A stretch of DNA of 64,000 bases from positions 111,893 to 175,892 of the forward strand of contig CAWBIB010000005.1 in the NCBI GenBank assembly GCA_963788785.1, read 5' to 3'. The position numbers were made by a program, and so were the translations under genes. The notes beneath the pieces were generated by a model. That model worked only from the letters and a program-made list of their open reading frames with translations, was not told the DNA's origin and made no database searches. Source of the stretch: an uncultured Acidobacteriota bacterium (GTDB lineage Bacteria; Acidobacteriota; Terriglobia; Acidiferrales; UBA7541). Shown piece by piece: positions 15,582 through 56,680 of this stretch (positions within the stretch are counted from its first letter, which is position 1; each line of letters begins with the position of its first letter).

Positions 15582-16346
15582 TCAAGTGAAAATCCACGCC
15601 ACCGTAGTGAACACCACGATCAAAAGCGCGTAAAGCCCGCCGGCAATCGCCAGAGATTTCCCCAATGGAAGCTTTTTCGGGTCAGCCATCGAAAATCCAA
15701 TCGCAATTAGTACTAGCGACCAGATACTGAAAACATCCAGCGGCCCTAGTAGCGCAAGCTGCCACGTGGGCGCATCCGAGCCCAGAAATGCGCCTGGATT
15801 GGACGCCAGGAAATTCTCCGGATCAATAGCCCGCGGGTCTTTCAACAGCGTCACCGGAATAGCCAGCAACTCTCGCAAACCATCCGGCAAATGACCAAAG
15901 GCACTGATCGCGAAAGCCACCGCGAAATTCAGCCGGGCCCCTGCAAACAACTTGTACGCGCCTAGATAAATTCCTGCCGTGATGGTAATTAGAAGCGGCC
16001 AGCCGATCACCCCGCGAACGTAGCGAATAATTTTCGAGCGTCCCGCCGCCTGCGCGTAGGCCGCCTCTTTCTGCTCATCTTTCAACTGCTCCATCTGGGA
16101 CGCCGCAAACTTGTTCTTCGAGATTTGCTCCTTGGAGAATTCCATCCAGTCCACTCGCCGCACCATCACCGCGCTTAGTCCCAGCCAGATGAGGAAAAGA
16201 ACCAGCAGCGGCGCGAGCCAGCTCGGACGCCGCACAATATCCGCAAACGTATTCTTCGGATCGAAAAAGACTCCGGTAATCCGCGCGAATGCCCCCAGTC
16301 GCGGTTGCCCTCCAGAATCAGACAACGCTATAGAAGGTGTACTCAT
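15582..16346 (-). CDS. Yip1-domain membrane protein
   Basis: ATG 16346 after GGAGGAG; GVFFDPK.TF..I..RPSWL motif; multiple TMs. Confidence 0.75.
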   Translation of the reverse strand: MSTPSIALSDSGGQPRLGAFARITGVFFDPKNTFADIVRRPSWLAPLLVLFLIWLGLSAVMVRRVDWMEFSKEQISKNKFAASQMEQLKDEQKEAAYAQAAGRSKIIRYVRGVIGWPLLITITAGIYLGAYKLFAGARLNFAVAFAISAFGHLPDGLRELLAIPVTLLKDPRAIDPENFLASNPGAFLGSDAPTWQLALLGPLDVFSIWSLVLIAIGFSMADPKKLPLGKSLAIAGGLYALLIVVFTTVAWIFT

Positions 16347-16568
16347 AGACTCGCTCCTCCACTCGCTCCAAGTAGCACAGGCATTCCTGCCTGTGCGCAG
16401 ACGCAAACCGCGCCGCAGAATTTACCCGGCGCAGTCACCCGCCATCTGGCGTCCTGCCCGTGACTACGCAACGGGCGCGGCAAATATATCGAACCTCAGC
16501 AGCAATTTTACAAGATTTTTAAGAGAGGAAAGACCGCATTCCGGCGGGCACCCCGCCGCCACCGCCGC

Positions 16569-17381
16569 CTAAACCCGCGGCAACTCCGGGACCGCCGCCA
16601 ACAACTCTTGCGTATAAGGATGCTGTGGCGCGCGCAACACCTGCTCCGCCTCGCCCAATTCCACAAATTTTCCCGCGCGCATCACTGCAATCCGCGTCGC
16701 CACCTGCGCTACTACCGGCAAACTGTGCGAAATCAACAAGTACGTCAACCCAAACTCCGCCTGCAATTCCTGGAGCAACACCAGCATCTGCGCCGCAACC
16801 GACACATCCAGCGCCGAAACCGGCTCGTCGGCCACAATCAACTTCGGCCGCAAAATCAGCGCTCGCGCGATCCCAATCCGTTGCCGCTGCCCCCCGGAAA
16901 ATTCGTGTGGATACCGCGCGGCAAACTCTTCGTTCAAGCCAACGCGCCGCAACATCGCCGCCGTCCGCTCGCGCCGCTCACCTCCAGAAAGCGCCGGCTC
17001 GTGTATCGCCAGCGGCTCCGCCACAATCTCCCCAACGCGCATCCGCGGATTCAGCGAAGCGTACGGATCCTGAAACACCATCTGCACCTGCCGCCGCGCC
17101 CCGCGCAACTCCGCACCGCTCAACGCCGTAAAATCGCGCCCCACAAAAATAATCTTCCCGCCATCCGGCTCAATCAATCGCAACAACATCCGCGCCAGCG
17201 TGGTCTTCCCGCACCCGCTCTCCCCCACAATCGCAAAAGTCTCTCCCGCTACGATGTCAAAGCTAACGCCATCCACCGCCCTAAACGACGCGCCCTCTCC
17301 CCCCGCCGCAAACGCACCCCCGCCGCGCTTGTACGTCTTGCGCAGCTCTGTCACACTCATCAATGTTTCTTTAGTCGCCAT
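16569..17381 (-). CDS. Oligopeptide/dipeptide ABC transporter ATP-binding protein (OppF/DppF type)
   Basis: [37 protein letters not shown]. Start moved to 17381 because the ORF-track start lies in a REP element. Confidence 0.9.
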
Positions 17382-17409
17382 CGCTCCCAACAATTTCGCC
17401 AGCGTCTTT

Positions 17410-17436
17410 GTAGCGGCCGCCTTCTGAGGCGGGCGC
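17410..17436 (+). repeat. REP-like palindrome, GTAG class A
   Basis: GTAG-CGG-CCGCCT-TCTG-AGGCGG; near-identical copies at 21571 and 22306. Confidence 0.75.
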
Positions 17437-17461
17437 ATTTTTCAACAATGAGGAACGCCAG

Positions 17462-18463
17462 TCACTTCGCCAAAATTTCTGCGACCCCACCCACCAATAC
17501 ACATCTCGCAGAATGCCCAACGTCACCCGCCACAGCCCGCAAATCCGGCACCCGCACCACGCACACCTCCCTTCTCCACGAACACCGCGGCGCAAACGCA
17601 CACCCCGCGGGCAACTCCGTCAACTGCGGCACAGTCCCCGGAATCGGCTCCAGCTTCCCACGTTCCAGCGTCGGCGAAGCCGCCAACAATCCCTTCGTAT
17701 AAGGATGCGCCGGCCCCGCGAGCACTTCGCCCACCGGCCCCGACTCCACGATCCGTCCGGCATACATCACCGCCACGCGATCCGCCACCTGCGCCACCAC
17801 TCCCAGATCATGCGTAATAAAAAGCATCCCCAGCCGCATCTCGCGCCGCAATTGATCCAGCAGACCCAGCACCTGCTTCTGCACCGTAACGTCCAGCGCC
17901 GTAGTAGGCTCATCCGCAATCAAGAGCCGCGGCCCCGCCGCCAGCGCCATCGCAATCATCACCCGTTGCCGCAATCCCCCAGAAAGCTGGTGCGGAAATT
18001 GCTTGGCGCGCACCTCCGGCTCCGGCACAGACGCCCGCCGCAACGCCGCAACTGTTCTCTTCTCAATTTCCGCCCCGCTCAGTGCCGGGCCATGCGCGCG
18101 AATCGCCTCCGCCACCTGCGCGCCCACCGACATCACCGGATTCAGCGAGGTCATCGGCTCCTGAAACACCATCGCAATTTCTCCGCCGCGCACCGCTCGC
18201 CACTCGCTCTCGCGCAGACCAACCAAATTTTTCGCCGAACTCTTTTCGCCAGATAAAATTGCCTCGCCAGAAACTCGCGCCCCCACCGGCAATAATCCCA
18301 TCAACGCCAAGGACAACATCGTCTTTCCGCTGCCAGACTCTCCCACCAGCCCGAGCGTCTCCCCAGCCGCAATCCGCAGCGAAACCTCATTCACCGGACG
18401 GACCCACCCCCGCGGAGTCGGCAACTCCACCGTTAGTCCACGCACCTCCAGCAAATCCGTCAT
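17462..18463 (-). CDS. Oligopeptide/dipeptide ABC transporter ATP-binding protein (OppD/DppD type)
   Basis: GESGSGKT, FPHQLSGGLRQRV, DEPTTALDVT, C-terminal GCAFAPRC. Confidence 0.92.
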   Translation of the reverse strand: MTDLLEVRGLTVELPTPRGWVRPVNEVSLRIAAGETLGLVGESGSGKTMLSLALMGLLPVGARVSGEAILSGEKSSAKNLVGLRESEWRAVRGGEIAMVFQEPMTSLNPVMSVGAQVAEAIRAHGPALSGAEIEKRTVAALRRASVPEPEVRAKQFPHQLSGGLRQRVMIAMALAAGPRLLIADEPTTALDVTVQKQVLGLLDQLRREMRLGMLFITHDLGVVAQVADRVAVMYAGRIVESGPVGEVLAGPAHPYTKGLLAASPTLERGKLEPIPGTVPQLTELPAGCAFAPRCSWRREVCVVRVPDLRAVAGDVGHSARCVLVGGVAEILAK

Positions 18464-18539
18464 GACCAAATCATACGCAGAAACCCAACAGCGCGGAAAA
18501 ATCGTAAACATTTTTTTGCGTGACCGTTATAGTAACGAT

Positions 18540-19403
18540 GTGTCGAAAATATTTTGCCCGCGATGCGGAAAGCAAGCGTTCTATGACGATTTTACAAAGA
18601 GTTCGAAGCCCTGTTGCCTGTCATGCGGCTGGAATTTGGAACTGGCGAAAGAACGCAGTCGTTCTCTACTAAAAGGGCTGTCAGTTGGTCTGGCGATGTT
18701 CGGCATATTTCTCGGCTGTATGGCATTCTTTTCGAAGGATTTCTCCATCCTCATCCCATTTTTGTTTATGGCCGGCCTCCTCAGCGCCGTCGCGATTCCT
18801 AGTTGGAAACGTTTGCGAAAGCTAGAAGCGGCCGCCAGTTCAATGCCGTTCGTCGATAATTCGCAACTACCGATCTCAGCCATCACGCCAGAAACGAAGA
18901 AAGCAGGTTCGTTGAACGCCGACCAATTGCGGGCGCTTCCCAAACCGCGGCGCGTGCGTTTTAAGACTCTGCCGAAAGTATTGTCGATTGCTTTTCCTAT
19001 CTTTATCGCGCTAGCCCTTTACTTCGGTTTCGCCTATGTTCGAGACGGCCTGCTCGCCTACACCTCAATCTCCGGTCTGTGGGTGCCCCTGTTTATCGCT
19101 GCGATTTGGTCCGCTATTGCGGTCCAGTCTCTGCGTCGCGCTAGGCGCGATTTGAAACTTCTCGCGGAAGGCGATTTGGCGGTGGCCACCGTCACCGCGC
19201 AGTGGATGACCGGAGGTAAAGGATCACGGAGCAGAATCAGTTTTCAGTTCAGAGATGCGTCAGGACGATTGATCCTTGGCGAGGCCGATGACAGTTCGCG
19301 CGCGCTCTTCGAAGAAATGGAAATCATAGTGTTCTACGAACCCTTCAATCCAGAGAACTGCGTTCCCCAAAAACTAGCGGCGTGCGAACTCGCAGAAACC
19401 TAG
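18540..19403 (+). CDS. Membrane protein with N-terminal Zn-ribbon and C-terminal DUF3592-like domain
   Basis: CPRC...CLSC; four hydrophobic segments; C-terminal ISFQFRDASG...IVFYEPFNP; likely GTG start at 18540. Confidence 0.6.
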   Translation: MSKIFCPRCGKQAFYDDFTKSSKPCCLSCGWNLELAKERSRSLLKGLSVGLAMFGIFLGCMAFFSKDFSILIPFLFMAGLLSAVAIPSWKRLRKLEAAASSMPFVDNSQLPISAITPETKKAGSLNADQLRALPKPRRVRFKTLPKVLSIAFPIFIALALYFGFAYVRDGLLAYTSISGLWVPLFIAAIWSAIAVQSLRRARRDLKLLAEGDLAVATVTAQWMTGGKGSRSRISFQFRDASGRLILGEADDSSRALFEEMEIIVFYEPFNPENCVPQKLAACELAET

Positions 19404-20011
19404 CGATCGGCTAAAGGAATCACAAATTTCAGCGCAGTGTGCGTGGCGGAAAAGCCAACCACCTTCACATCTTTAAGGCCAGCCTTACGCCCAGCCGAAA
19501 TCACGCCCACTTCCGTAATGTCTTTTCGACCCTTGGGATAAACCATCCATAACCCAACAGCGCCTTTCATCTTTTTCGCGTGTTTCGCAACTAGACTCAA
19601 ATCCTTTTCGGATTCCGCCAAAACAAATATCCACTCCGCGTCGCCATCAATCGCTCCGGAATTTACAACACACTTCAGATCGCGCAACTCCCGCAAAAAT
19701 CCCGGCTCAAATTCCCCGATCACCGATACCCCCGCCCCCGTCTTCACTCCCAATTTCTCCATCCGCGACTTCGGATGCAAAATCTTCTCTCGCCACTTCG
19801 CGGCAACTTTCTCTCCCACCTCAAACGCCACCAACTCACCGCCAGCCTTCACGACCAAGTCGCCCTTCACCACTTCTACCGACTTCATTTCCGCAAACGG
19901 AATTTTTAGTCGTGTGGACCCGCGAAAAATAATCTCCGCGGCCTCGAGCAACACTTTCCCCTCCGTTCGATTCCTCCCCACCCGCATCGCACACTGAACT
20001 TCATTCCCCAC
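19400..20011 (-). CDS. DUF3052-like hypothetical protein
   Basis: EKLGVK, LWMVYPKG, GLKDVKVVGFS.THTALKF pattern. Confidence 0.6.
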   Translation of the reverse strand: MGNEVQCAMRVGRNRTEGKVLLEAAEIIFRGSTRLKIPFAEMKSVEVVKGDLVVKAGGELVAFEVGEKVAAKWREKILHPKSRMEKLGVKTGAGVSVIGEFEPGFLRELRDLKCVVNSGAIDGDAEWIFVLAESEKDLSLVAKHAKKMKGAVGLWMVYPKGRKDITEVGVISAGRKAGLKDVKVVGFSATHTALKFVIPLADR

Positions 20012-20138
20012 GATTCACCGCCCGCTCAAATTCGTCGCAGTTCGCCGCAACCTCACGCGAACGCGACGTTTCAATTCCGCAACGCCCCACACGCGCCACC
20101 ATAATCCACCACCGCCGCGATAGTAAACTAGTCTATTC

Positions 20139-21520
20139 ATGGCCACGACCACCGCCAGCTCGCCAGCTCCGCCGCGCGTGACGCTGCCTAGTCCGCCCGC
20201 CCCTCCAGCCACGGCCAGGCCCGTTGACTGGAAACTCATTTGGGCGCAACGCGGCTTCCGCTATTTCTTTTTCGCCATGCTGATCTCGCTGTTCGGCAGC
20301 GGCATGAACTTTGCCGGCGTCAGCTGGTACATCCTCGCCGCCACCCATTCCACCGTAAAAGTCAGCCTGCAGGTAATCGTGGTGACGCTCCCCGGCCTGG
20401 TAATTCCCTTCGTAGGCGGAGTCCTGATCGACCGCTTCGACCGCCGCTACCTGGGCGTGCTGCTCGACGCTGCCCGCGGCATCGTGGTGCTGAGCCACCG
20501 CCTACATCGCCTGGACGCGGCCACCTCCAGCTCTGGCACCTCTACGCCATGACCCTGATCACCGGCACCGGCTCCGCCATGTATTGGGCCAACGTAAACT
20601 CCCTGGTCCAAGAAGTAATCCCGCCCAGCCAATTCACCGGTGCCAACGCCGCCGTTTTAGTCGGAGTACAAAGCGGCATGCTGATCGCCGGCTCGGTAGT
20701 CGGCTTCATCTACGATCGCGCCGGCATCTGGGGCATCCTGGCCATCGACGGCCTCACCTACTTCGTCTCCGCCTATTGCCTCTACAAAGTTCGCAGCGGC
20801 TACGTCTCCCCGCGCACCCACGGGAAAACCAATCGCGTCTACAGCCAGGCCACCGAAGCCACCGCCGAGGCCCTCGAAAGCGGCGCCAATCCCGAGGTCG
20901 CCGAGGCCGGCCTCTCACTCGCGATGTACAAAGATTTCAAAGAAGGCATCAACTATCTGAAGCGCGAACCCATCGTCCGCGCCCTCGGCATCACTCACGC
21001 CATCATGATGGCCGGAGTCGTCAGCGCCAACGTAATCCTGGTCGCTCTGGTAAATGACGTCTTACACGCTGGCGCCAAAGGCCTGGGTTTTGTGGAAGCC
21101 GGATGGGCCGCAGGCGCTGTAACCGGTGGCCTGATCGCCAGCCAACTCTCGCAAAAAGTTCGCATGCCCGTCTACGTCGCGGCGCTTGCAATTCTAGCGG
21201 TCGGACACATGGCCACCCCTTACGTTGCCTTCCTGATCGGCGCCGCCACCCTACAATTCCTGTTCGGCCTCTGCCGCAGCCTGGGAGGGGTCGTCGCTCA
21301 ATCCGGCCTGATGTCCATCGTGCCCCAACACTTCATGGGCCGCACCCAGTCTGCAATGGCCATCCTCACCACAATAATCCAGCTCATCATGAGCGTGGGC
21401 CTGGGCGTAATCGCCGAACGCATCAACCTAACCGCCGGCTACGCGCTCTTGGCATTACTCTACGTAGCCGCGACAATCTTCGCCTCCCGCGCCCGCCAAC
21501 TCCTCCACCCGCCGTTGTAG
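20139..21520 (+). CDS. MFS transporter (frameshifted near 20493 and 20515)
   Basis: G..IDRFDRR motif A and about 12 TMs across two ORFs; removing one A at each of 20493 and 20515 gives continuous GIVVLATAYIAWRGHLQLWHLYAM. Confidence 0.85.
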
Positions 21521-21690
21521 CGGCGGGTCTTCAGACCCGTTCTTCTGCCCGTTTTGTTGAGTTTGACTTCGTAGCGGCAGCCTTCTGAGGCGGTCGCCTT
21601 TGAATTTGTTTTCTGAATCTGTGTTTTGACTTTCTTTCCTCAGGCTCCCTTTCTCCGCGTCCTCTGCGCCTCTGCGTCCTCTGCGTTAAT
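21517..21690 (+). repeat. Cluster of REP-like palindromes plus CTCTGCG heptamer repeats
   Basis: GTAG-CGG-CGGGTCT-TC-AGACCCG at 21517 (its TAG is the MFS stop), class A copy at 21571, and tandem (C/T)CTCTGCG repeats near 21651-21685. Confidence 0.75.
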
Positions 21691-21788
21691 CTTCTATCTT
21701 CGTCCGTAAAACTCTGGTCCCCCGCGAATCCCCTTGAACCCACGCCCGCACCGTTCTCTAATAATCCCTTCGCTCACGAGGCCACCGA

Positions 21789-22289
21789 ATGGAAATCACC
21801 ACCATCCACCCCTTCCTCCGCTACTTCCACAACGTCCGCGAACGCACCCTCCGCGTAGCCCGCCTGATCCCTCCAGACCAAATCAACTGGACCTACGCCG
21901 AAGGAAAATTCACATTCGGCGACCTGCTCCGCCACCTGGCCGTAGCCGAACGCTTCATGTGGGCCGAAAACGTCCAAGGCCTCCCCAGCCGCTTCACTTC
22001 CCAAGGCCCGGAACTTGCTGCCACCCTCCCGGAAATTTTCGCCTTCATGGAGCGCCTGCACAGCGAATCCATGGCCATCTTCGGCAAGCTCACCGACGAC
22101 CAGCTAAAACAGAAATGCCCCACCCCCGGTGACGGCCAAATCACCACCGCCAAATGGCTCCGCGCCATGGTCGAACACGAAGTCCACCACCGCGGCCAAA
22201 TCTACATCTACCTCGGAATCCTCGGCATCCCCACCCCACCCATCTTCGGCCTAACCTCCGAACAAGTCCGCGCGACCAGCCAGCCTTGA
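21789..22289 (+). CDS. DinB family protein
   Basis: FTFGDLLRHLA, MVEHEVHHRGQI.IYL..LG metal-site pattern. Confidence 0.88.
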   Translation: MEITTIHPFLRYFHNVRERTLRVARLIPPDQINWTYAEGKFTFGDLLRHLAVAERFMWAENVQGLPSRFTSQGPELAATLPEIFAFMERLHSESMAIFGKLTDDQLKQKCPTPGDGQITTAKWLRAMVEHEVHHRGQIYIYLGILGIPTPPIFGLTSEQVRATSQP

Positions 22290-22305
22290 TCTCGTCTTTG
22301 ACTTT

Positions 22306-22374
22306 GTAGCGGCCGCCTTCTGAGGCGGTCGCCTGTGACTTTTTAGGGGCGTCCGCCGCGGCGGACTGCGCCAC
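22306..22374 (+). repeat. REP-like palindromes (class A plus TTAG variant)
   Basis: GTAGCGGCCGCCTTCTGAGGCGGTCGCC, then TTAGGGGCG-TCCGCCGCGGCGGA-CTGCGCC. Confidence 0.7.
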
Positions 22375-22596
22375 AGCTTGCCCGGACGGATACTTTCGCC
22401 CGGCTATATTTAACTCCTTTAAAAAAACAACCGATTCGTTTGAGTACCCAGGCCAGATCGCAGAGCGTTTGGTGTTTCCCGGGAACGCCAATCTCCCGAT
22501 TGGCGATGTAGTCCACATCGCGCAATCCTTACCGAGGGACGCAAATCAAAAACGAAATCTACCCCAACTCGCGAACCCGCGCTAAAATCCCCACCC

Positions 22597-23505
22597 ATGG
22601 CACCACCAACCTCCCTCGCTGACCTAAACCGCCTTCACGCCATCCCCGGAATCGCTCAAATCCTCGAAAACGAATCCGGCCCCCACGTCCGCATAACCCC
22701 AAAATCCTGCGCCGTCACCATGCACCTCCACGGCGCCCAAATCACTTCCTGGAAACCCGCCAACTCCCAGGAAGTAATTTTTCTGAGCAGCAAAGCCCGC
22801 TTCTCCGAAGGCCAAGCCATCCGCGGCGGCATTCCCATCTGCTTCCCCTGGTTTCGCGCCAAATCCGACGATCCCAAAGCCCCGGCTCACGGCTTCGTTC
22901 GCACCAAAAACTGGGACCTCGATTCAATAAAAGCCGAAAACGACAACGTCGCCGTAACCATGACCACCGAATCCGACGACAGCACAAAAAAATACTGGCC
23001 CGCAGATTTCCAATTGAAACTCCGGGCCACCTTCGGCGCCGCTCTTAAGCTGGAACTAACCACCACCAACACCGGTACCACGCCGCTCAGCTACGAGGAA
23101 GCTATCCATACCTACTACGCGATAGGAGATATCCACCAAGCCCGGATTAAAGGTTTGGATAACGCGACCTACCTCGACAACACCGACGCCAACAAAGAAA
23201 AAACACAAAGCGGTGACGTAACCATCTCCGCCGCGACCGACAGCGCCTACATCAACAACGAAAACTCTCTGGAACTCATCGATCCCGTCCTGAATCGCCG
23301 CATCCACTTCCAAAAACAAAACTCCCACACCACCGTAGTCTGGAATCCCTGGGAAGCCGCCGCCAACAAAATGTCCGACATGGGCGAGGGTGAATGGAAG
23401 CAAATGTTATGCGCTGAAGGCGCCAACATTTTAGGAAACGCCGTCAGCTTAAACCCCGGCGCACACCACACCACCACAGTCACAATGACCGTCTCGTCTC
23501 TGTGA
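22597..23505 (+). CDS. D-hexose-6-phosphate mutarotase (aldose 1-epimerase family)
   Basis: HGAQITSW, AIRGGIPICFPWF, HGFVRT, HTYY, VVWNPW, MLCAE. Confidence 0.9.
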   Translation: MAPPTSLADLNRLHAIPGIAQILENESGPHVRITPKSCAVTMHLHGAQITSWKPANSQEVIFLSSKARFSEGQAIRGGIPICFPWFRAKSDDPKAPAHGFVRTKNWDLDSIKAENDNVAVTMTTESDDSTKKYWPADFQLKLRATFGAALKLELTTTNTGTTPLSYEEAIHTYYAIGDIHQARIKGLDNATYLDNTDANKEKTQSGDVTISAATDSAYINNENSLELIDPVLNRRIHFQKQNSHTTVVWNPWEAAANKMSDMGEGEWKQMLCAEGANILGNAVSLNPGAHHTTTVTMTVSSL

Positions 23506-23530
23506 ACATAGCGCTTCTCTAAATTGTCTC

Positions 23531-23640
23531 GGGGGTCGGAGCTTCAGCTCCGACATGATCGCTGCGCCTACCAACCGGCTTTAGCCGCTGAGGAACCGCC
23601 TTCCTGTTTTTTCTGCAAGAGGCCGGGACTTCAGCCCCTG
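23531..23640 (+). repeat. Second REP-like cluster (CTTCAG/CTTTAG-centred hairpins)
   Basis: GTCGGAGC-TTCA-GCTCCGAC, CGGCTTTAGCCG-CTGAGG, GGGACTTCAGCCCC. Confidence 0.6.
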
Positions 23641-23707
23641 CTAAAGTCCGCGCAATAAATCACCTCGGCGAAACCCACACGGTCCAGACTTCATCTTTCA
23701 TGACGAC

Positions 23708-24139
23708 TTACGTCGAATTCACCCACAGGGGATCTTGAATTACTTCGCATCCAGCTACTTCTTTATCTTCCAGAACCGAGATTTCCGGATTTTTGGGATC
23801 GTATCGAACCGTAACGGAACACCCGTCCAAGCGCTTTTGTAACTGATCCGCCGACAGCATATCTTCGGCCAGAACCACGAAAAATCCGTAGTGTGAGCGA
23901 GTGTCTACCGTATAGGCATATCCGAACCTGCTCTGAACCGAACCCGATCGAATATACCCTCCGGAACCAGGCTGCAAAGTTTCTCCACGCTGAACAATCC
24001 CCGGAATGGCCGGCCAGCTGTGGCTACGGAGAGTTCGAATGTAGGAACGAATCGCCAGGAATCCAACACGCAGTCCAATGCCTCCGCCAAAAAGCGCCAA
24101 CGCCCACTCAAAAATGTTTTGCGCCTGCGACATCAGCAT
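23708..24139 (-). CDS. DUF3592-like membrane protein
   Basis: N-terminal TM, then SHSWPAIPG.V, YAYTV, V.VRYDPKNP..SVL. Confidence 0.7.
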   Translation of the reverse strand: MLMSQAQNIFEWALALFGGGIGLRVGFLAIRSYIRTLRSHSWPAIPGIVQRGETLQPGSGGYIRSGSVQSRFGYAYTVDTRSHYGFFVVLAEDMLSADQLQKRLDGCSVTVRYDPKNPEISVLEDKEVAGCEVIQDPLWVNST

Positions 24140-24143
24140 TCTC

Positions 24144-26165
24144 TTACCGAACTTCTTCAGGGCGATTCACTTCCTCACTCTTCTTCTCCACCACTCCCGC
24201 CGCGCCAGCCTTCCCCAGCAAATCCACCGCCTCTTGATACAACTTCGCCCGCAATAAATGCCGCTCACTCGCACTCGTAATATACCGCACCGAAATCTCC
24301 ACCCCGCCCACCACCGGCTTCACATTAATCGCCGGAGCCGCAGTCATCTCCGTAACATTCCGGTCCCCCGCCGCCTGCTTCCATTCAGACTCCGCCTGCC
24401 GTGCGCTGGCCGCCGTACTCTCGGTAACTCGCTTCTGAATCGCCGCCACGATCGGATACGGATCCATCCCCATCGGCAGCACCACCTGCAACTCATCCCA
24501 CAACCACTGCCCCGAAGTTGAAAAATTGAAGTAATGATTTTCAATCGCGAAACTATTCGTGAACGTCACCCGCCGCCCGGTCGGATGTCCCGAATCCGTC
24601 CAGTTCCCGGTCTCCAGCAATACGGTGTGAAACATTCCCAGCTCCACCACTTCCCCGGTAACCCCGTTAATCTCCACCCAATCCCCCAGCCGGATCCCGT
24701 TCTTCCCCATCAAAACAAACCAGCCCAAAAATCCCACAATAAAATCTTTCAGCGCCACGGTGAGACCAGCGCCGGCCAATCCCAAAAACGTTCCCAGCTG
24801 CGACGGCGGCCCAAAAATTACCAGCAACACAAAGAGCACCGCCAGCACTTGCAATGACACTCGCGTAACCGTTCGCAGCGTTTGCACCTGCCGCCGGTCC
24901 AAAGAAGTCTTTCCCAGCAATTTTTCCAGCCACCCGTCAAAAACCAGTCCAATCAAAAGAATCGCCAGAATGATCGCCACGCCCACCAGCATGCGGTGTT
25001 CCGTCGCCCGTTTCTTCGCTGCGATCAACGCGCCCCACTTGGCGTAGACCTCGGCCAAATCTTTTTGGTCGTCGATCCGTTTATCAAAAGTAGAAAGCGC
25101 CTGCTGATCCACCGCCCGCCGTTTCGTAGTCTTTAGCAGCGACACCGTTTCATCGTGATTGTGGGTCGCGTGCTGCCCCGCGGAAGTTGCCGCAGCACTG
25201 CCGGCAGCAGTAGTTGGCTTTCCGGCGTTCGACGTTTTTGCCGGAGCCGCATTCTGTGTCGCCGATTTTGCCTGTCCGGTTGGAGGTACCGATGGAGCTA
25301 CGGTACCCGGCGCAGCGGCATTGGCCGGTGCCGAAGGCGTTGCTTGAACTGTTCCCGTAGCGACAGTTCCATTTACATCCGTCCCGCCATTTTTCTCCGC
25401 GTTAAGCTGCGCATCCAGCGCGTTGTGTTTATTCGAGAGCCTTGCCACCACTGCTTCCGCATCTTCCTTCGCCTGCTGTAGCTGCCGCTCTTTTTCTCGC
25501 AGCGCCCGCCACTGTTCCGCGCGATGGATCAGCCCCAACTGTTCCGGAGCCGTCTGCACCGCCGCCAATGCCTTCTCGGTGTTGTGCGCGGTCGCCTCAT
25601 GCTGATCGACCATCTGCTGAATCCGTTCCTGCGGATTGCCGCCCGCCCTGATCAGATCCTGCTTGGCATCATCCACCTCATCTTCATCGAGCTCTTGTTG
25701 AGACTTGGCCAGCTCCAGCTCGTCATCCAGCGCATCTTTCTGCGCATTGCTGGCCTTGGCGTCCGCGACGGTAAGCGCCGCAACGCGCGCCTTATCCGCG
25801 TCCAGCGCCTTCTCCGAGTTCTGCAGCCGGGTCTGAACTTCCTTCGCTTCCGCGGACAGTGCCGGTGGATGCTCCGCCGCATCGCGCAACGCCTGCGCAA
25901 ACGCTATGTCCACCGCATGGTCCGAAATCCGCAGCGCTTCCGCAGCAAAAGCCTGCTCGTCCGCCGCCGTAACCAGCCCCGCCAAACGCTGCGCGGTAAA
26001 CAGCGGCGTCTGATCCACAGCATTCTTGGCCTGCGCATCCCCCGGAGTAGTCGTGACCACGACTACTCCAAGATACGTCGGCCCGCCCGTACGCAACAAC
26101 CCATAACCCGCCGCGCCCAAAAGCAAAATCAACACCACCGCCGCAATCTTTTCCGAAGTCTTCAT
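24144..26165 (-). CDS. MscS-family mechanosensitive channel with large N-terminal extension
   Basis: GLAGAGLTVALKD, IRLGDWVEINGVTGEV, VTFTNS; N-terminal helical region and Ala/Pro/Thr linker. Confidence 0.88.
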   Translation of the reverse strand: MKTSEKIAAVVLILLLGAAGYGLLRTGGPTYLGVVVVTTTPGDAQAKNAVDQTPLFTAQRLAGLVTAADEQAFAAEALRISDHAVDIAFAQALRDAAEHPPALSAEAKEVQTRLQNSEKALDADKARVAALTVADAKASNAQKDALDDELELAKSQQELDEDEVDDAKQDLIRAGGNPQERIQQMVDQHEATAHNTEKALAAVQTAPEQLGLIHRAEQWRALREKERQLQQAKEDAEAVVARLSNKHNALDAQLNAEKNGGTDVNGTVATGTVQATPSAPANAAAPGTVAPSVPPTGQAKSATQNAAPAKTSNAGKPTTAAGSAAATSAGQHATHNHDETVSLLKTTKRRAVDQQALSTFDKRIDDQKDLAEVYAKWGALIAAKKRATEHRMLVGVAIILAILLIGLVFDGWLEKLLGKTSLDRRQVQTLRTVTRVSLQVLAVLFVLLVIFGPPSQLGTFLGLAGAGLTVALKDFIVGFLGWFVLMGKNGIRLGDWVEINGVTGEVVELGMFHTVLLETGNWTDSGHPTGRRVTFTNSFAIENHYFNFSTSGQWLWDELQVVLPMGMDPYPIVAAIQKRVTESTAASARQAESEWKQAAGDRNVTEMTAAPAINVKPVVGGVEISVRYITSASERHLLRAKLYQEAVDLLGKAGAAGVVEKKSEEVNRPEEVR

Positions 26166-26260
26166 AAAGTAAGTCCGGCCCCAATTCTACCTCGTCCCAG
26201 TGCGCAGAACGCCCCTTCTTATAACCACAATTTTCTCCAACGCAGATCCCGACGCAACGC

Positions 26261-26346
26261 GCACTTGTAGCCGCACTTGTAGCGGCGGGTCTTCAGACCC
26301 GTTCTTTTGCCGTCGCTTCTGTAGGGGCACGGCATGCCGTGCCCCT
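26261..26346 (+). repeat. REP-like pair (GTAG classes B and C)
   Basis: Near-tandem GCACTTGTAGC duplication, GTAGCGGCGGGTCTTCAGACCCG (same as 21517) and GTAGGGGCACGGCATGCCGTGCCCC at 26321. Confidence 0.75.
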
Positions 26347-26504
26347 CTTGGTTTCCCAAACACCCGATCCCACCATCGCCCACACACAACCAAACGCCTT
26401 CCCAGCCCATTCCCGCCTCGAATTCCCCGCTCAAACAATTCCCAAAATGGTCCGCAATACCGCACACACAAAAAGCTTAGTATCTCCAGTACCTCAGAAT
26501 TGAC

Positions 26505-26532
26505 TTGACCCTCATATAATAAATGTTATTCT
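26505..26532 (+). promoter_or_regulatory. Candidate sigma70 promoter upstream of hicAB or of an sRNA
   Basis: TTGACC-16 nt-TATTCT within an AT-rich patch. Confidence 0.45.
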
Positions 26533-26824
26533 AATCCCATTCAGAACCGCGCCCGCGGTAGAAACCAAACATTCCAAAGCATCTCGTGATCTTTCGGGAC
26601 TACTCGGCAACGGCGTTTGGCGCCGGCGCATAGTATCTAGTCTGCCAACAAAACGCACCCGTAACTCCCGCAGAATGAACACTTACGAATCGTTATCAAA
26701 ACAAAAGACTTTAACCAGTTTAGAATCACAACGATTCACCATTCCCCGGGGGTAGCTGCGATAACCAACTGCGCGAATATCGTCAGGACCGACCTCAGGA
26801 TGGTCAGCTTGTGAGGGTCTGCCT

Positions 26825-33616: not shown

Positions 33617-35380
33617 CTAGTGGGCGGCCAGCTTGCGCATCAGTTCCTGCTTGCGCTCCAGCAGGGCGCGGAGATTTGCGCCGGATGGCTGGGATTCGAT
33701 GTCGCGCTGGACTTGGGCTACGGCGCGTTCGGTTTGTTTGCGCTGCAATTCCGAAAGGCAGCTTTCCGCTTCTTCCCAGGTTGCCGATTCCTCTTCTTCG
33801 AAAAGGACTTCAAATAGCAGGCTGCGGTCGCGATCGTCCAGCGCTCCGGCCACTTCTTTGGTATCGATGGGCACTTCCGCAAGGTTGCCCGCAATCAAAG
33901 CGGCGATGATTCGTTCGGCTTCCATTCCTTCGTAGAGGCGTTCTTGCTGCAGGCGGCGCGCCAGCTCTACTTTGAAATCCTCGGAATCGGCGAGCATGCG
34001 GATCAGCCGGCGCTCTACCGGTTTGGTGACGCGGCCGAGCAGTTCCGGATGGGCTTTCACTTGGCTGTGCCGTTCGGTGGCAGCTTTGCTCAGGGCTGCG
34101 CGCAAGACGGGTTCATCGAGACGCAATTGCTGGGCGATGCGGGTGGCCCATTCGGAACGGAGCAGGCGATTTGGAATTTTTTGTACGTAAGGAAGCAGAA
34201 AATTTACGGCGCGAAGTTTTCCTTCGCCGGTGGTGAGATCCATCTGGCGCGCGCGGGCGATTAAATAATCGACGTAGGGCGGCGACTCTTTGAGCACTTT
34301 GCGGTAGGCTTCGGCGCCTTTTTCGCGGATGAATAAATCCGGGTCGGCTTTCTTGTCGCCCACCGGGGGCAGCGCGAGAACGCGAACTTCGAAATCCTGT
34401 TCGAGTAATAGCGCTACGGAACGCTCGGTCGCGGCTTGCCCGGCGCTGTCTGGATCGTAATTTACGATTACGCGTTTGGTGAAGCGCGCCAACAATTTTA
34501 TTTGGGGCTCGGCGAGGCTGGTGCCGCAACTGGCGACTACGTTGCTGATTCCCGCGCGGGCTACGGCGATAGCGTCCATATACCCTTCGACCAAAATCGC
34601 AAAGTCCTGGCGGCGCAACGCGTCTTTGGCGCGATCCAGGTGATAGAGGACATTGCTTTTTGAATAGATCGGCGTCTCTGGCGAGTTTAGATATTTGGGC
34701 TGATCGTCGCCGAGGGCGCGGCAGCCGAAGGCCACGATTTTTCCGCCTTCATTAGCGATCGGGAAAGTGATGCGGCGGCGGAAGCGGTCGAAAAAACGGC
34801 CGCTTTGGTCGCGAGAGATTAATCCGGAAGCGACCAGGAGTTTTTCGTCTTTATATTTCGGTCTCAGCAGGCGCACCAGTGCATCGCCGCCGCTCGGCGC
34901 GTAGCCAATCCCAAATTGTTCGATGACTTGCGGCGTCAGGCCGCGGTCTTCGAGATACGCCCGCGCGACGCGGCCTTCTGGAGTACCTTCCAGTTGCTTG
35001 GTGAAATAAGCCTGGGCGGCGCGATGCATTTCCAGAATTAAGGTGCGCTGCTGATTCTCGCGGCGTTCTTCGGGAGAGCGGTCGCGTGGAGCGGGAACGG
35101 CGATGCCACACTTTTCCGCGACGATACGGATGGCTTCGGGAAAGGCGCACTTTTCCATCTCCATTACAAATTTGAAGACGTCGCCGCCGACCTGGCAGCC
35201 AAAACAGTGATAAATCTGTTTGGTGGGATGGACCGCAAAGGACGGAGATTTTTCCGCGTGAAAGGGACAGAGTCCGGTGAAGTTCTGGCCGCTTTTTTTC
35301 AGGCGCACGTATTCGCCGACCACGCGAACGATGTCCGCCTGCTGCTTTACGCGATCCGCGAATGATCCGGCTTCAGCCAT
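33617..35380 (-). CDS. dnaG: DNA primase
   Basis: CPFHAEKSPSF..CFGC zinc finger, PKYLNSPET, TOPRIM VEGYMD, YDPDSAG. Confidence 0.97.
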   Translation of the reverse strand: MAEAGSFADRVKQQADIVRVVGEYVRLKKSGQNFTGLCPFHAEKSPSFAVHPTKQIYHCFGCQVGGDVFKFVMEMEKCAFPEAIRIVAEKCGIAVPAPRDRSPEERRENQQRTLILEMHRAAQAYFTKQLEGTPEGRVARAYLEDRGLTPQVIEQFGIGYAPSGGDALVRLLRPKYKDEKLLVASGLISRDQSGRFFDRFRRRITFPIANEGGKIVAFGCRALGDDQPKYLNSPETPIYSKSNVLYHLDRAKDALRRQDFAILVEGYMDAIAVARAGISNVVASCGTSLAEPQIKLLARFTKRVIVNYDPDSAGQAATERSVALLLEQDFEVRVLALPPVGDKKADPDLFIREKGAEAYRKVLKESPPYVDYLIARARQMDLTTGEGKLRAVNFLLPYVQKIPNRLLRSEWATRIAQQLRLDEPVLRAALSKAATERHSQVKAHPELLGRVTKPVERRLIRMLADSEDFKVELARRLQQERLYEGMEAERIIAALIAGNLAEVPIDTKEVAGALDDRDRSLLFEVLFEEEESATWEEAESCLSELQRKQTERAVAQVQRDIESQPSGANLRALLERKQELMRKLAAH

Positions 35381-35397
35381 GGTTTAGAACAGAGACA

Positions 35398-35622
35398 CTA
35401 GCTAGTAATTGCAAGCCACCAAAGTTTTTTCCAGACCGATTGCCAAAGCTGCTCATTCCAATCTGTCTTTTCAAGCTGCTTCAGGAAATCCAAAAAGCAG
35501 GCATATAGCGACTGCGCAAATTGATCGCGATTGACACAGCTCCCCCATGAAAATTCCTGGTAATAGTCTCCCGACATTTTGATGAAACATGGAGTCTCTC
35601 CGATCTGACTCAAAATGAGCAT
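35398..35622 (-). CDS. Small AT-rich hypothetical ORF (possible gene fragment)
   Basis: 74 aa, Trp/aromatic rich, fills the mutS2-dnaG gap in the same orientation. Confidence 0.35.
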   Translation of the reverse strand: MLILSQIGETPCFIKMSGDYYQEFSWGSCVNRDQFAQSLYACFLDFLKQLEKTDWNEQLWQSVWKKLWWLAITS

Positions 35623-35644
35623 GGCGTTGCTTCAGCCGGAATCT

Positions 35645-49184: not shown

Positions 49185-49808
49185 ATGGGAACGTCTGTCC
49201 CGGTCCAGCCGCAACAAGTCGGCATCCTCGTCCTCGATGCCGATGCCTCCAGCGCCGCAGCGCTTCGCGTAATTTTGGATTCAGAAGGCTGGCGCGTGCG
49301 CATCGTGCCCGATGCGCAGTTGATGCTCAGCGAACTGAAAACCGGCGAATGGTCTATGGTAATCGCCAGCGCCGCGTTGACTCCGCCAAACAGCGCGGCT
49401 TTCGTTACTCTTCGCGAACTATCCGGCGTTTCCGCGGATGAAGGCGGCCGTATGCGGGTGCTTTTTCTGATCCCGGAAATGACCGGCAGCCAGTACGTTG
49501 GTCCGCTCGAAGCGGCGCGCCTGCCTTACGTGGTACGCCCGTACCACTTGCACGATTTTCTCGAAAAAATCAGCGACCTGCTGGTGGAAGTGCGCGCGAT
49601 TGCCGCGCCTATCCGCCAGGTGCGCTACGAATTTGGCGACCTGCGCAAAAAGAAAAAAGCCGAAGGCCGCTCGAACTCCATGTTTGCTTCCCGCGACTCT
49701 TTTTCGTATACCGACGAAGAGCTAGCCGAGTACGAAAAGTCCGAAGGCGAAGCCTCCAAAAACCGCCGCCCCAAGCGCCTGGACAATCTGGGCAGCTCCG
49801 GCCGTTAG
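49185..49808 (+). CDS. Atypical receiver (pseudo-response-regulator) domain protein
   Basis: REC-like pattern ILVLDAD...RVILDSEGWRV; expected phospho-Asp strand reads SMVIAS and the KP motif reads RP; charged C-terminal tail. Confidence 0.6.
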   Translation: MGTSVPVQPQQVGILVLDADASSAAALRVILDSEGWRVRIVPDAQLMLSELKTGEWSMVIASAALTPPNSAAFVTLRELSGVSADEGGRMRVLFLIPEMTGSQYVGPLEAARLPYVVRPYHLHDFLEKISDLLVEVRAIAAPIRQVRYEFGDLRKKKKAEGRSNSMFASRDSFSYTDEELAEYEKSEGEASKNRRPKRLDNLGSSGR

Positions 49809-49964
49809 ATAAGTACCAGTTTCCCTCACCTCGCTTTCACGCGAGACCCGCCGTTTCATTCCCTCGTTACATCATTACTTCTTTCCTTCATTTTTCCCTG
49901 CAAGAATTCCCGTCCGCCGCGTTCTACCTCCGAAGGTCAGTTCCACTCTGCCAAGGAGGTTTTT

Positions 49965-51101: not shown

Positions 51102-51122
51102 ACCTCGCAATGCTCCGTCTTT

Positions 51123-51147
51123 GTAGGGGCGCAGCATGCTGCGCCCC
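51123..51147 (+). repeat. REP-like palindrome, GTAG class C
   Basis: GTAGGGGCGCAGCATGCTGCGCCCC, same architecture as 26321. Confidence 0.75.
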
Positions 51148-51208
51148 ATCTCGGCTTGATTGGGGACACACATTCACAACCTTGGCTTCGCCTTTTGACA
51201 GGTATTCA

Positions 51209-51694
51209 CTAATCTCGCACCACGCGCACAACGCTGACGTCTTTCGTCAATTGAAGCATCTCCGCGGCCGTCAAACCCGTAACCGGATGCCGCACCTCCG
51301 GCGCAATCTCCGCCAGCGGCACCAAAACAAATCTCCGCTCCGCCATTCGCGGATGCGGCACCTGCAACCCCGCCAGATTGATCACCGCGTCGCCATAAAA
51401 CAAAATATCCAGATCAATAAGCCGCGGCCCTTTCGCAAACGCCTTGGCGCTTCCCATTTCCGTCTCAATGCCCCGCAAGCGTCGCAACAGTTCCACGGCC
51501 TCGACGCCCGTCTCGCCCTCAACCACGCAGTTCAAAAACCAATCTTGCTCTAAATAATCCACCGGCTCAGTCTCGTAAATTTTCGATGTTCGCCGCACTC
51601 GCACACCCGCGCCATCGAGCGCAGCAATCGCCACGCGCAAATTCTCCGACCGATTCCCAATATTAGATCCCAGCGAAAGGTAAACAACCGTCAT
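51209..51694 (-). CDS. folK: 2-amino-4-hydroxy-6-hydroxymethyldihydropteridine diphosphokinase
   Basis: YLSLGSNIG, FLNCV, GPRLIDLDIL, VPHPRM.ERRFVL.PL. Confidence 0.96.
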   Translation of the reverse strand: MTVVYLSLGSNIGNRSENLRVAIAALDGAGVRVRRTSKIYETEPVDYLEQDWFLNCVVEGETGVEAVELLRRLRGIETEMGSAKAFAKGPRLIDLDILFYGDAVINLAGLQVPHPRMAERRFVLVPLAEIAPEVRHPVTGLTAAEMLQLTKDVSVVRVVRD

Positions 51695-51719
51695 GAATTT
51701 GTAGTCTGTTCGGGCCGTT

Positions 51720-51757
51720 TCGTTACTTCTTTACTTCATTACTTCGCTTTTCTTTTC
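51720..51757 (+). repeat. Degenerate TTACTTC short tandem repeat
   Basis: CGTTACTTCTTTACTTCATTACTTCGC between ruvB and folK. Confidence 0.55.
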
Positions 51758-52789: not shown

Positions 52790-52889
52790 TCGAAAACAAC
52801 CCTCATCCGCATTTTCCTCAAATCCCTGAGCAACTCAACCAGCATCCCGCATGTATTTGACCCGTCACAAATATTGAAGCCGGTTTTTT

Positions 52890-56631: not shown

Positions 56632-56680
56632 CGGGAGAAGAATGCCGTTGAGCCCTTAGCTTTCCCGGAGTTTCCGCCGT

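Follow-up and report, generated by a model that had tools for sequence, protein, structure and literature searches.

Chirochores are the replication-associated GC skew of bacterial chromosomes, where the leading strand contains more G than C. The mosaic of strand-skew domains described here is similar to chirochores in that the skew is a property of the strand and not of the gene, is strongest at synonymous sites, and exhibits the same C|G polarity as at an origin. However, the mosaic changes sign about every 10 kb while the chirochore sign changes twice per chromosome. The mosaic also bears no relation to the replichores that AGGGAAG marks, exhibits no chromosome-scale component, and has a far larger amplitude (four-fold-site skew to +/-0.7-0.85). 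In mammalian skew N-domains, the skew jumps sharply upward at replication origins and falls gradually between them. The mosaic shares the sharp upward jumps, the gradual or local downward changes, and the bipolar structure around jumps. However, it occurs in a bacterium that has dnaA and a pair of polar replichores, its domains are 100 times shorter, and many are one-sided or box-shaped with plateaus instead of linear declines.

GRINS are duplicated segments of 0.3-1.4 kb with tightly correlated GC and TA skews that are found mostly in Actinobacteria PKS genes, and they have been proposed to be linked to gene conversion (PMC8256042). In both GRINS and the mosaic, intense local one-strand skews of either sign occur in intact genes and peak at third codon positions. 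Unlike GRINS, the mosaic domains are about 10 kb long and single-copy, extend over core genes and half of the genome, and lack A/T asymmetry at four-fold sites. IS200/IS605 elements and REPs undergo strand-specific insertion into single-stranded DNA by Y1 (HUH) transposases (PMC6006769). The genome in this work likewise has GTAG-headed hairpins (REPs) with strongly polar orientation and six Y1-transposase (Y1_Tnp) genes. However, REP orientation follows the local skew domain (92%) and not the replication arm (55-59%), and GTAG is on the C-rich strand, which is opposite to the lagging-strand-template rule if the G-rich strand is the leading strand. No description of this kilobase strand-skew mosaic, or of a process that accounts for it, was found in the literature.

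The genome analysed is a metagenome-assembled genome (MAG) of an uncultured soil Acidobacteriota ('Acidoferrales') of 5.1 Mb in 9 contigs. The window is the whole stretch of 64,000 nucleotides that was analysed from it, and its features are listed in Table 1. A preliminary description had reported skew domains from six hand-counted lines of 60 nt, and the recount returned the same C and G values for all six. The skew also survives in unbiased windows, with all-site GC skew of -0.248 at 15600-26500 (binomial z -19.7), -0.307 at 51150-53600, and -0.189 at 56600-60300, compared to +0.001 at 27000-50500. The observation is confirmed as real and had been understated: the C-rich blocks of the window are three among approximately 255 strand-composition domains throughout the genome.

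Table 1. Features of the window with their positions, strands, and composition.
Feature	Position	Strand	Details
Recounted 60-nt lines (start, counts)			17221 C26/G8; 22201 C29/G7; 53461 C30/G10; 57961 C27/G11; 27841 C19/G23; 34141 C9/G21
C-type domain	15582..26165		+ strand C-rich, G-poor; 10 genes (4 +, 6 -); four-fold-site GC skew -0.56
GTAG-headed hairpin (REP-like)	16372..16395	+	
OppF-like gene	16569-17438	-	Strand confirmed by NCBIfam
REP	17410..17435	+	TTTGTAGCGGCCGCCTTCTGAGGCGGGCGC
OppD-like gene	17462-18511	-	Strand confirmed by NCBIfam
Skew-free ORF	18462..19403	+	Hole within the C-type domain 15582..26165; GC3 skew -0.06; GC3 0.57; low coding score
MFS gene	20240-21520	+	Strand confirmed by NCBIfam
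REP	21517..21539	+	GTAGCGGCGGGTCTTCAGACCCG; family D12
REP	21571..21596	+	GTAGCGGCAGCCTTCTGAGGCGGTCGC; family D5
REP	22306..22331	+	GTAGCGGCCGCCTTCTGAGGCGGTCGC
REP	26279..26301	+	GTAGCGGCGGGTCTTCAGACCCG; first of tandem pair at domain edge
Sharp upward switch	26300..26800		End of C-rich domain; change-point 26558; skew -0.27 to -0.07
REP	26321..26344	+	GTAGGGGCACGGCATGCCGTGCCCC; second of tandem pair
Weak G-type domain	33617..38059		Over dnaG and mutS2-like gene; four-fold-site skew +0.37
Composite C-type domain	49185..63551		14 genes (6 +, 8 -); four-fold-site skew -0.42; cores 51150-53600 and 56600-60300
Sharp downward switch	50800..51300		Gap of convergent genes (49965-51101 +, folK -); change-point 51058; skew -0.06 to -0.30
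REP	51123..51146	+	GTAGGGGCGCAGCATGCTGCGCCCC; commonest family in genome
folK	51209-51694	-	Coding-strand GC3 skew +0.57
ruvB	51758-52789	-	Coding-strand GC3 skew +0.48
ruvA	52933-53553	-	Coding-strand GC3 skew +0.63
Sharp upward switch	53300..53800		5' end of ruvA; change-point 53558; skew -0.30 to -0.05

The genes of domain 15582..26165 exhibit coding-strand GC3 skew of +0.39 to +0.73 on the - strand and of -0.45 to -0.69 on the + strand, the latter range being that of the + genes at 20240-23505. The - genes that were checked with NCBIfam (oppD/oppF-like, ruvA, ruvB, and folK) exhibit +0.48 to +0.73, and the skew does extend to core genes (ruvAB and folK) as had been proposed. The 1-kb skew returns to -0.015 at the ORF 18462..19403, for which the NCBIfam search gave no match; this ORF is probably young DNA or no genuine gene. 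The identity of dnaG in the weak G-type domain was confirmed, and a MutS_V domain is located at contig C5:148413-148952 within the gene 35645-38059. The upward switch at 26300..26800 coincides with the tandem REP pair and adjoins a hicAB-like insert (~26760-27230), and the REP at 51123 falls in the convergent-gene gap of the downward switch. All eight hairpins of the window (the preliminary description had counted seven) lie between genes on the + strand and within or at the edge of C-rich domains.

A total of 255 strand-skew domains cover 54% of the genome. Their median length is 9.6 kb (interquartile range 5.9-14.2 kb), which agrees with the proposed switching scale of about 3-12 kb and is far below the replichore scale. 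C-rich and G-rich domains are equally frequent, and 213 of the 255 domains contain genes of both strands. The skew was rightly described as a strand effect rather than a gene effect: the + strand GC3 skew of neighbouring genes in opposite orientation is correlated genome-wide (r = +0.66). Only G and C exchange at four-fold sites while A and T remain flat. The fitted rule on one strand (in log units) is that C is favoured by about +0.6 to +0.75, G is disfavoured by about -0.65 to -0.75, and A/T are neutral, and it is valid at both four-fold and two-fold sites. At two-fold sites, NNY loses C (0.71 to 0.43) and NNR gains G (0.33 to 0.68). The suggestion that codons end in C/A or in G/T therefore holds for two-fold sites but not for four-fold sites, which trade G and C only. 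Intergenic DNA and the first two codon positions shift in the same direction but more weakly.

Sharp C|G switch points anchor the mosaic on the large scale, and between 122 and 194 of them were detected at different thresholds. These divide opposite polarities that each extend outward for at least 10 kb and then fade, and the 5' end of the G-rich strand is at the switch. Large upward jumps outnumber large downward jumps, by 49:23 and 21:8 in one analysis and by 27:14 and 8:2 in a second analysis. Upward jumps are flanked by plateaus of -0.2 and +0.28, each about 10 kb long, while downward jumps are local (3-4 kb). Many switch points fall within genes.

The polar heptamer AGGGAAG marks normal replichores in this genome. 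Its + strand to - strand counts are 116:16 over 0-1.2 Mb of contig C9 and 1:50 beyond that, 41:2 on C1, 9:51 on C7, and 6:50 on C4. The replichore-level four-fold skew is merely +0.033 and 0.000. AGGGAAG keeps its replichore orientation inside the domains of wrong sign (24:9 and 28:5), which refutes the REP-mediated inversions that had been offered as an explanation. The sign of a domain is independent of gene direction, replication arm, and inversion.

The same mosaic was found in all eight congeners sampled (~100 kb each), and short samples from additional congeneric assemblies, which are highly fragmented, also contained strong skew blocks. Congener synteny is split into blocks of a few genes, and polarity is not conserved within these blocks. 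The coding-strand skew of orthologues in G000 and its congeners is uncorrelated (r = 0.04, n = 271), and that of ruvB ranges from +0.57 down to -0.71. Two sister genera of the same family exhibit strong uniform GC-only skew of the ordinary replication type (amplitude ~0.1), and in the closed sister-genus genome G128 the skew fits the replichores defined by AGGGAAG and dnaA at all three sampled loci. This strong replichore-wide skew is absent from the genus with the mosaic, and the mosaic is confined to that one genus.

The domains are perhaps footprints that were left over many rounds by site-anchored, directional recombination, repair, or replication restart with repeated exposure of one strand, a reading to which we give about one chance in three. 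A directional DNA transaction would restart at the same sites and proceed outward with the same strand single-stranded each time. Resection from 5' to 3' would leave a 3' tail, and the tail strand would be the strand that turns C-rich. The MutS mismatch hierarchy is such that G.T and G.G are well recognised and C.C scarcely. Heteroduplex correction on the tail strand would thus favour C and disfavour G, and the observed rule at free sites matches this hierarchy. The data show the anatomy of the domains, their independence of genes and replichores, the common orientation of the REPs, and the confinement to one genus, while exposure of a single strand, the geometry of resection, and a bias of mismatch repair are inferred. 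The genome encodes the required MutS1, MutS2, and MutL. REPs would be passengers that collect on the exposed, C-rich strand in the GTAG orientation, because Y1 transposases require single-stranded DNA and a 5' GTAG guide (PMC6006769). The link of intense skews to gene conversion in GRINS is a precedent (PMC8256042). Several findings count against the repair or restart model. Apart from REPs, no sequence was found to recur at the switch points, roughly half of the sharp switches have skew on one side only (from ~0 to strong skew), the plateau shape is not the simple decay that is predicted from variable resection lengths, and intergenic DNA responds more weakly than four-fold sites (slope 0.29).

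Local replication initiation, where forks start from many fixed sites (recombination-dependent, R-loop-primed, or extra origins) and not from oriC alone, is possible with a chance of about one in four. Each C|G switch would be a start, the G-rich strand would be the local leading strand, and variable termination would give gradual downward transitions as in skew N-domains. C lies to the left of the switches and G to the right, as at a bidirectional origin, and upward changes are sharp while downward changes are gradual. A single change of fork origin would explain both the mosaic and the loss of the replichore-wide skew that the sister genera exhibit. REP orientation, which reports fork-associated single-stranded DNA (PMC6006769), also tracks the local skew far better than the replichore. 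However, more than 100 start sites would be needed despite the retained dnaA and the normal polar-motif architecture. To our knowledge, such a number is unprecedented in such a bacterium. By hand calculation, gene-strand bias goes with the AGGGAAG strand (1734/3185, 54.4%) but not with the strand that is G-rich locally (1357/2836, 47.8%). Compared to the sister genera, the local amplitude (0.25-0.35) is two to three times as high, the GTAG-bearing C-rich strand would be the leading-strand template contrary to the IS608 rule, and many domains are one-sided or box-like (e.g. 51.1-53.6 kb).

The preliminary description had proposed that RAYT nicks the DNA at REPs and that the ensuing strand displacement or exposure of single-stranded DNA produces the skew. 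The link that it drew between skew and REPs is strong. The orientation of a REP predicts which sign the surrounding four-fold-site skew has (r = -0.74; none of 1000 circular-shift controls was as extreme), and GTAG is on the C-rich strand for 243 REPs and on the other strand for 20. REPs occur preferentially where the DNA is strongly skewed (mean |skew| 0.376 vs 0.255) and near upward jumps, on which they converge. Domains with REPs are longer (12.6 vs 6.8 kb) and stronger (0.42 vs 0.34) than those without, and the genome has six Y1-transposase genes. However, 136 of the 255 domains are REP-free. In the congeners G008 and G010, a GTAG-hairpin occurs about every 100-120 kb, yet the mosaic is equal or stronger (SD of 1-kb skew 0.137 and 0.164, compared to 0.129 here), and G001, where the PF01797 search gave no match to a Y1-transposase gene, exhibits an SD of 0.134. 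REPs are therefore not the cause of the skew but would be its passengers. The nicking model is largely refuted by the REP-poor congeners, and we regard it as unlikely.

A transcription-linked bias or codon-usage selection, with one class of genes that prefers G-ending codons and another that prefers C-ending codons, is very unlikely. The effect does peak at third codon positions and is weaker in intergenic DNA, small local downward jumps are located at convergent gene pairs, and GTAG is on the sense strand in ~69% of co-oriented REP contexts. However, adjacent genes on opposite strands have anticorrelated coding-strand skews (r = -0.68), gene counts per skew class are the same on both strands, and orthologues change class between species. 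These findings refute such an origin for annotated genes. The correlation between REPs and skew also remains -0.62 to -0.76 in every gene context.

A classical replication skew that was scrambled by many recent inversions, or by imports from congeners with the genes on the other arm, is highly improbable. The small syntenic blocks of the congeners and the strong classical skew of the sister genera are in its favour, but it was rejected by the polar-motif (AGGGAAG) test. Residual replichore-level skew is absent, polarity varies even within conserved syntenic blocks, and it is reasoned that a telegraph-type model cannot yield a gene-level SD of 0.34 together with a mean near 0. An artefact, either a chimeric MAG (the genome is in 9 contigs) or strand-specific sequencing or consensus error, is just as improbable, since the genes are intact and conserved (RuvB is 86-92% identical among congeners) and the changes fall mainly at their synonymous sites, the pattern correlates with REP orientation as an independent feature, and the independently assembled, fragmented congeners exhibit the same mosaic.

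The reading of the domains as the footprint of a directional process is our best guess, held with low confidence, with recombinational repair or replication restart as its preferred form. The repair or restart model alone leaves the absence of the sister-type replichore-wide skew unexplained, whereas a change in where forks start would cover both. The repair or restart model also requires frequent recombination between diverged DNA.

The 1-kb profile of the window exhibits GC skew of -0.2 to -0.35 in three blocks (16-26.5 kb, 51-53.5 kb, and 57-60 kb), and the skew of the remaining DNA is about zero or slightly positive. The coordinates of the features are shown in the table. The six 60-nt lines that had been counted by hand in the preliminary description were matched exactly on recount. 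The genes of the window were predicted using a codon-score caller and the critical ones (OppD/OppF-like ATPases, ruvA, ruvB, folK, rpoD, and dnaG) were verified with NCBIfam; beyond the window, gene calls come from the caller alone. The minus-strand genes in the C-rich blocks have coding-strand GC3 skew of +0.39 to +0.73, and at least 60% of their GC-ending codons end in G. The plus-strand genes in these blocks favour C endings (coding-strand GC3 skew of -0.45 to -0.69). These opposite skews indicate that C-richness is a property of the strand and not of the gene. The box at 51.06-53.56 kb spans folK, ruvB, and ruvA.

The right boundary of the first C-rich domain is a hicAB-like insert, where a hicA/hicB-like pair is preceded by a non-coding stretch. 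Within this stretch lies a single copy of the 12-mer AAGTGTTCATTC, which occurs 64 times between genes in the genome, and a related 14-mer is recurrent in the congener G003. AAGTGTTCATTC was rejected as a general switch marker since its only copy in the window is the one at the 26.5-kb switch. Rfam gave no matches in the window, and no long repeats were found in the window domains except the exbD paralogues and REPs (GTAG-headed hairpin repeats). Short arrays that repeat every 8 nt (TCGTTACTTCATTACTTC... on the plus strand, purine-rich GAAGTAAT-like on the minus strand) sit in the gaps 5' of folK and ruvB and past the gene at 49185-49808. These repeats may belong to leaders or have a link to translation. 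About 2 kb of DNA directly beyond the sharp switch at the start of ruvA has lower GC than the rest of the window.

Coordinates of features, counted from the window start unless a contig (C) of the source genome is named
Feature	Position	Property
Skew region	15600-26500	GC skew -0.248, z = -19.7
Skew region	51150-53600	GC skew -0.307
Skew region	56600-60300	GC skew -0.189
Skew region	27000-50500	GC skew +0.001
Skew switch	26558	at REP pair adjoining hicAB-like insert
Skew switch	53558	5' end of ruvA
Non-coding stretch and hicA/hicB-like pair	26500-27230	pair at about 26760-27230, + strand
Three tandem exbD-like paralogues (repeat families D1, D3, D4)	7740-9195	DNA segments 75-82% identical
8-nt-period arrays	49856-49908, 51712-51756, 52882-52942	
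Low-GC stretch	53600-55560	GC 0.52-0.55, low-scoring ORFs only
AGGGAAG	12085, 26886, 38698, 45325, 46147, 54425	
AGGGAAG	C9, 0-1.2 Mb	+ : - 116:16
AGGGAAG	C9, last 0.4 Mb	+ : - 1:50
AGGGAAG	C1	+ : - 41:2
AGGGAAG	C7	+ : - 9:51
AGGGAAG	C4	+ : - 6:50
Y1_Tnp (PF01797) genes	C7:7225, C7:354014, C6:26519, C9:694712, C4:164289, C1:359671	

The source genome (G000) is a 5.13-Mb MAG in nine contigs, in which the window occupies C5:111893-175892. The SD of 1-kb GC skew over the whole genome is 0.129, where about 0.04 is expected from sampling alone, and 12.8% of the 1-kb windows have absolute GC skew above 0.2. For adjacent genes in opposite orientation, GC3 skew is correlated at r = +0.66 on the plus strand and at r = -0.68 on the coding strand. 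The strand effect without regard to gene direction, as proposed for the window, is thus borne out across the genome. Simple segmentation with a minimum of three genes per domain gave 255 skew domains, 123 of them C-type (plus strand C-rich) and 132 G-type (plus strand G-rich), with a median length of 9.6 kb and a maximum of 30 kb. The domains total 54% of the genome, and 213 of the 255 carry genes on both strands. No chromosome-scale skew trend was found on any contig.

At the four-fold sites of G000, G declines from 0.62 to 0.15 as C climbs from 0.15 to 0.62. A and T are unchanged at 0.10-0.15, and GC skew shows little correlation with AT skew (r = 0.10). Two-fold sites respond too: the C fraction of NNY codons drops from 0.71 to 0.43, and the G fraction of NNR codons climbs from 0.33 to 0.68. 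Over all third positions, AT3 skew goes from +0.09 to -0.24 along with GC3 skew. The reported contrast of C/A and G/T codon endings between the strands therefore holds at two-fold sites and fails at four-fold sites, where A and T are flat. One rule fits all site classes: a preference for C of about 0.6-0.75 log units on one strand, a bias against G of about the same size, and no effect on A and T. Codon positions 1 and 2 shift slightly in the same direction as the four-fold sites, and intergenic DNA also responds (slope 0.29). A pure G<->C transversion bias was rejected since transitions move the two-fold sites to an equal degree. Mitochondria-like deamination of the exposed strand was rejected as the sole cause since four-fold A and T are unchanged and GC content is not lowered.

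The mosaic was found in all eight congeners sampled (about 100 kb each), with SD of 0.077-0.164 and opposite-strand neighbour correlations of +0.33 to +0.77. The ruvB orthologues share 86-92% protein identity, and the coding-strand four-fold skew of ruvB ranges from +0.57 in G000 to -0.71 in the congeners G003 and G008. The skew of orthologues is uncorrelated between species (r = 0.04, n = 271 pairs), and polarity is also lost within conserved syntenic blocks. Transcription-linked skew and codon-usage classes were rejected on this lack of correlation and on the negative coding-strand correlation between opposite-strand neighbours. The genomes G128 (closed) and G044, from two sister genera of the same family, exhibit uniform skew of about +/-0.1 across whole 20-kb samples, and the skew sign of G128 agrees with the replichore at three of three loci, a small sample (chance agreement 1 in 8). 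A GG-rich pattern tried as a stand-in for skew in G128 gave too few matches to be informative, and these were driven by Gly codons. Families elsewhere in the class and phylum are ordinary, with SD of 0.04-0.07 and opposite-strand neighbour correlation of zero or below. Loss of RNase HI, leading to R-loop-primed replication, was rejected since PF00075 is absent from G000 and equally from the sister genera of ordinary skew; at E<=1e-8 it is absent in 19 of 31 near-complete family genomes, including G000, G128, and G044. Loss of dnaA was also rejected: of the 46 family genomes searched, 45 carry the gene, G000 and G128 among them.

Large upward jumps, where skew rises from left to right across a C|G boundary, are two to four times commoner than downward jumps (49:23 and 21:8 in one analysis, 27:14 and 8:2 in a second). 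On average over 122 upward jumps, four-fold skew is about -0.2 over at least 10 kb on the left and +0.28 over about 11 kb on the right, fading after that. Downward jumps extend over only 3-4 kb and occur where paired genes converge. Roughly half of the sharp switches are one-sided, and some switch points lie mid-gene. The sharp edge is, in strand-neutral terms, the 5' end of the G-rich strand. The 122 switch centres share four times more sequence than random controls in all-against-all blastn. A common non-REP sequence was rejected since the shared sequence consists entirely of REPs and REP arrays. No Chi-like oligomer tied to domain polarity was found, and the residual k-mer asymmetries are accounted for by REPs and codon-position effects (for example GCTGGCG and GATTAC).

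G000 has 337 intergenic copies of GTAG[CG]GG[CG][CG][CG] in a few stem families, and 394 GTAG-hairpins are present genome-wide when coding position is disregarded. They conform to the definition of REPs, a GTAG or GTGG head 0-2 nt 5' of a GC-rich hairpin in many intergenic copies. Six PF01797 (Y1_Tnp) matches lie above the cut-off. RAYTs, the Y1 (HUH) transposases of REPs, are usually single-copy per genome, and the several coexisting stem families with six Y1_Tnp genes may represent one RAYT per family. REP orientation is correlated with local four-fold skew (r = -0.74), GTAG being on the C-rich strand. The suspected association with skew sign withstands permutation, as none of 1000 circular shifts of REP positions was as extreme (null SD 0.09). 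The in-domain REPs comprise 243 concordant and 20 discordant copies, the correlation is -0.62 to -0.76 across every gene context, and REPs are convergent on upward jumps. The relation of REP orientation to replication arm is weak (107:73 and 48:58). REPs were sought in G128 to calibrate orientation against replication direction, and essentially none were found (13 background hits). REPs are lacking in 136 of the 255 domains, the eight sampled congeners hold 0-5 GTAG-hairpins per 100 kb, and at least four of these congeners lack a PF01797 gene. Nicking at REPs had been suggested as the driver. The REP-free domains and the mosaic in REP-poor congeners speak against it and argue for REPs as reporters of polarity, not its cause.

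The AGGGAAG family was found by screening the octamers of G000 for long-range polarity. This polarity flips on contig C9 at about 1.2 Mb, and the bias on C5, the contig of the window, is weak (12:23). Separately, contig C3 holds about 1245 overlapping A8 words in a single orientation, which points to a very long poly(A) tract that may be an artefact of assembly at a contig end. In the closed G128, GCAGGGAAG, of which AGGGAAG is the core, lies on the plus strand from 3.17 Mb through 0 to 0.94 Mb and on the minus strand from 0.94 to 3.07 Mb. The chromosome thus exhibits exactly two flips, with the divergence near dnaA (2.95 Mb) and the convergence at about 0.94 Mb, where a dense motif cluster is found. 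Given this two-point flip, AGGGAAG behaves like a KOPS/AIMS-like polar replichore marker in the family.

In G000, AGGGAAG is on the replichore strand at 24:9 in strongly C-rich domains of plus arms and at 28:5 in G-rich domains of minus arms, so its orientation persists in wrong-sign domains against the compositional headwind. The mean four-fold skew per AGGGAAG-defined arm is +0.033 and 0.000. The domains are therefore neither inverted pieces nor arm-following. Inverted segments bearing old replication skew, including the REP-mediated inversions considered earlier, were rejected since AGGGAAG is not inverted with the skew. By hand calculation, 1734 of 3185 genes (54.4%) are on the AGGGAAG strand and 1357 of 2836 (47.8%) are on the locally G-rich strand; gene-strand bias thus follows AGGGAAG and not the local G-rich strand.

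GC skew is a textbook signature of bacterial replication and is routinely used for origin finding and assembly checks. Replichore skew is a strand property independent of gene orientation, as is the skew in G000. However, its sign is constant per arm and switches only at the origin and terminus, whereas G000 has domains of two signs throughout. Sharp upward jumps and gradual downward changes are shared with the origin-anchored sawtooth of mammalian N-domains, in which the jumps mark replication start sites. In GRINS (skewed repeats; PMC8256042), the skewed segment is a repeat undergoing gene conversion within the locus or genome, whereas the domains in G000 include single-copy ruvA, ruvB, and folK. 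GRINS also have strong GC and TA skews that go closely together; in G000, AT3 skew moves with GC3 skew over all third positions, and the two skews show little correlation at four-fold sites. These three systems are the nearest, and each misses at least one defining feature. No account of gene- and replichore-independent kilobase skew domains in bacterial core genomes, or for Acidobacteria, was found by full-text literature search.

Gene or transcription effects, inversions, import from rearranged congeners, REP nicking as driver, and artefact are excluded or unlikely. This leaves a directional process that is tied to fixed sites and affects a single strand for about 10 kb. Recurrent recombinational repair or restart is put forward tentatively as this process. 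Resection in the 5'-3' direction at a break would leave a 3' tail that is the C-rich strand on either side of the break, which would produce the C|G arrangement of the switches. MutS acts on G.T and G.G mismatches and is not known to act on C.C. Heteroduplex correction with this bias would favour C and disfavour G on the tail strand with A and T nearly neutral, which would give the composition rule as seen, and REPs would insert into the tail. MutS and MutL are present in G000. GRINS are a printed precedent where intense skew is linked to gene conversion (PMC8256042).

Local replication starts at many sites also fit and are somewhat less probable than repair or restart. They would account for the genus lacking the replichore-wide skew of its sisters and for the sharp jumps being upward only, but they require more than 100 start sites and fit the gene-strand bias, the amplitude, and the REP strand more poorly than repair or restart. 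The probability left by repair or restart and by local starts belongs to causes not yet conceived. It is unlikely, although worth stating, that the chromosome of the genus is no longer copied mainly by two oriC forks and has more than 100 fixed fork-start sites, 20-40 kb apart. Such forks would arise by recombination-dependent or otherwise primed replication, and the old segregation architecture (dnaA and AGGGAAG polarity) would be kept.

In this whole genus of soil Acidobacteriota, ordinary skew is replaced by a kilobase mosaic that is independent of genes and replication arms, exceeds almost any replication skew in strength, and turns over between species. A single-strand-specific mobile repeat family follows the mosaic, and REP orientation can thus track local single-strand exposure instead of replication arm. 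Whatever its cause, the mosaic is a major, previously undescribed force on synonymous sites, where the four-fold C/G ratio differs about 16-fold between domain types, and it also alters amino-acid composition in abundant soil bacteria. Tools for codon usage, HGT detection, origin finding, and misassembly that assume strand symmetry or a single switch will misread such genomes. If the chromosome is indeed copied from many start sites, the skew mosaic and REP orientations would be a sequence-level map of those sites, and bacterial multi-origin replication would be readable and testable from sequence alone.
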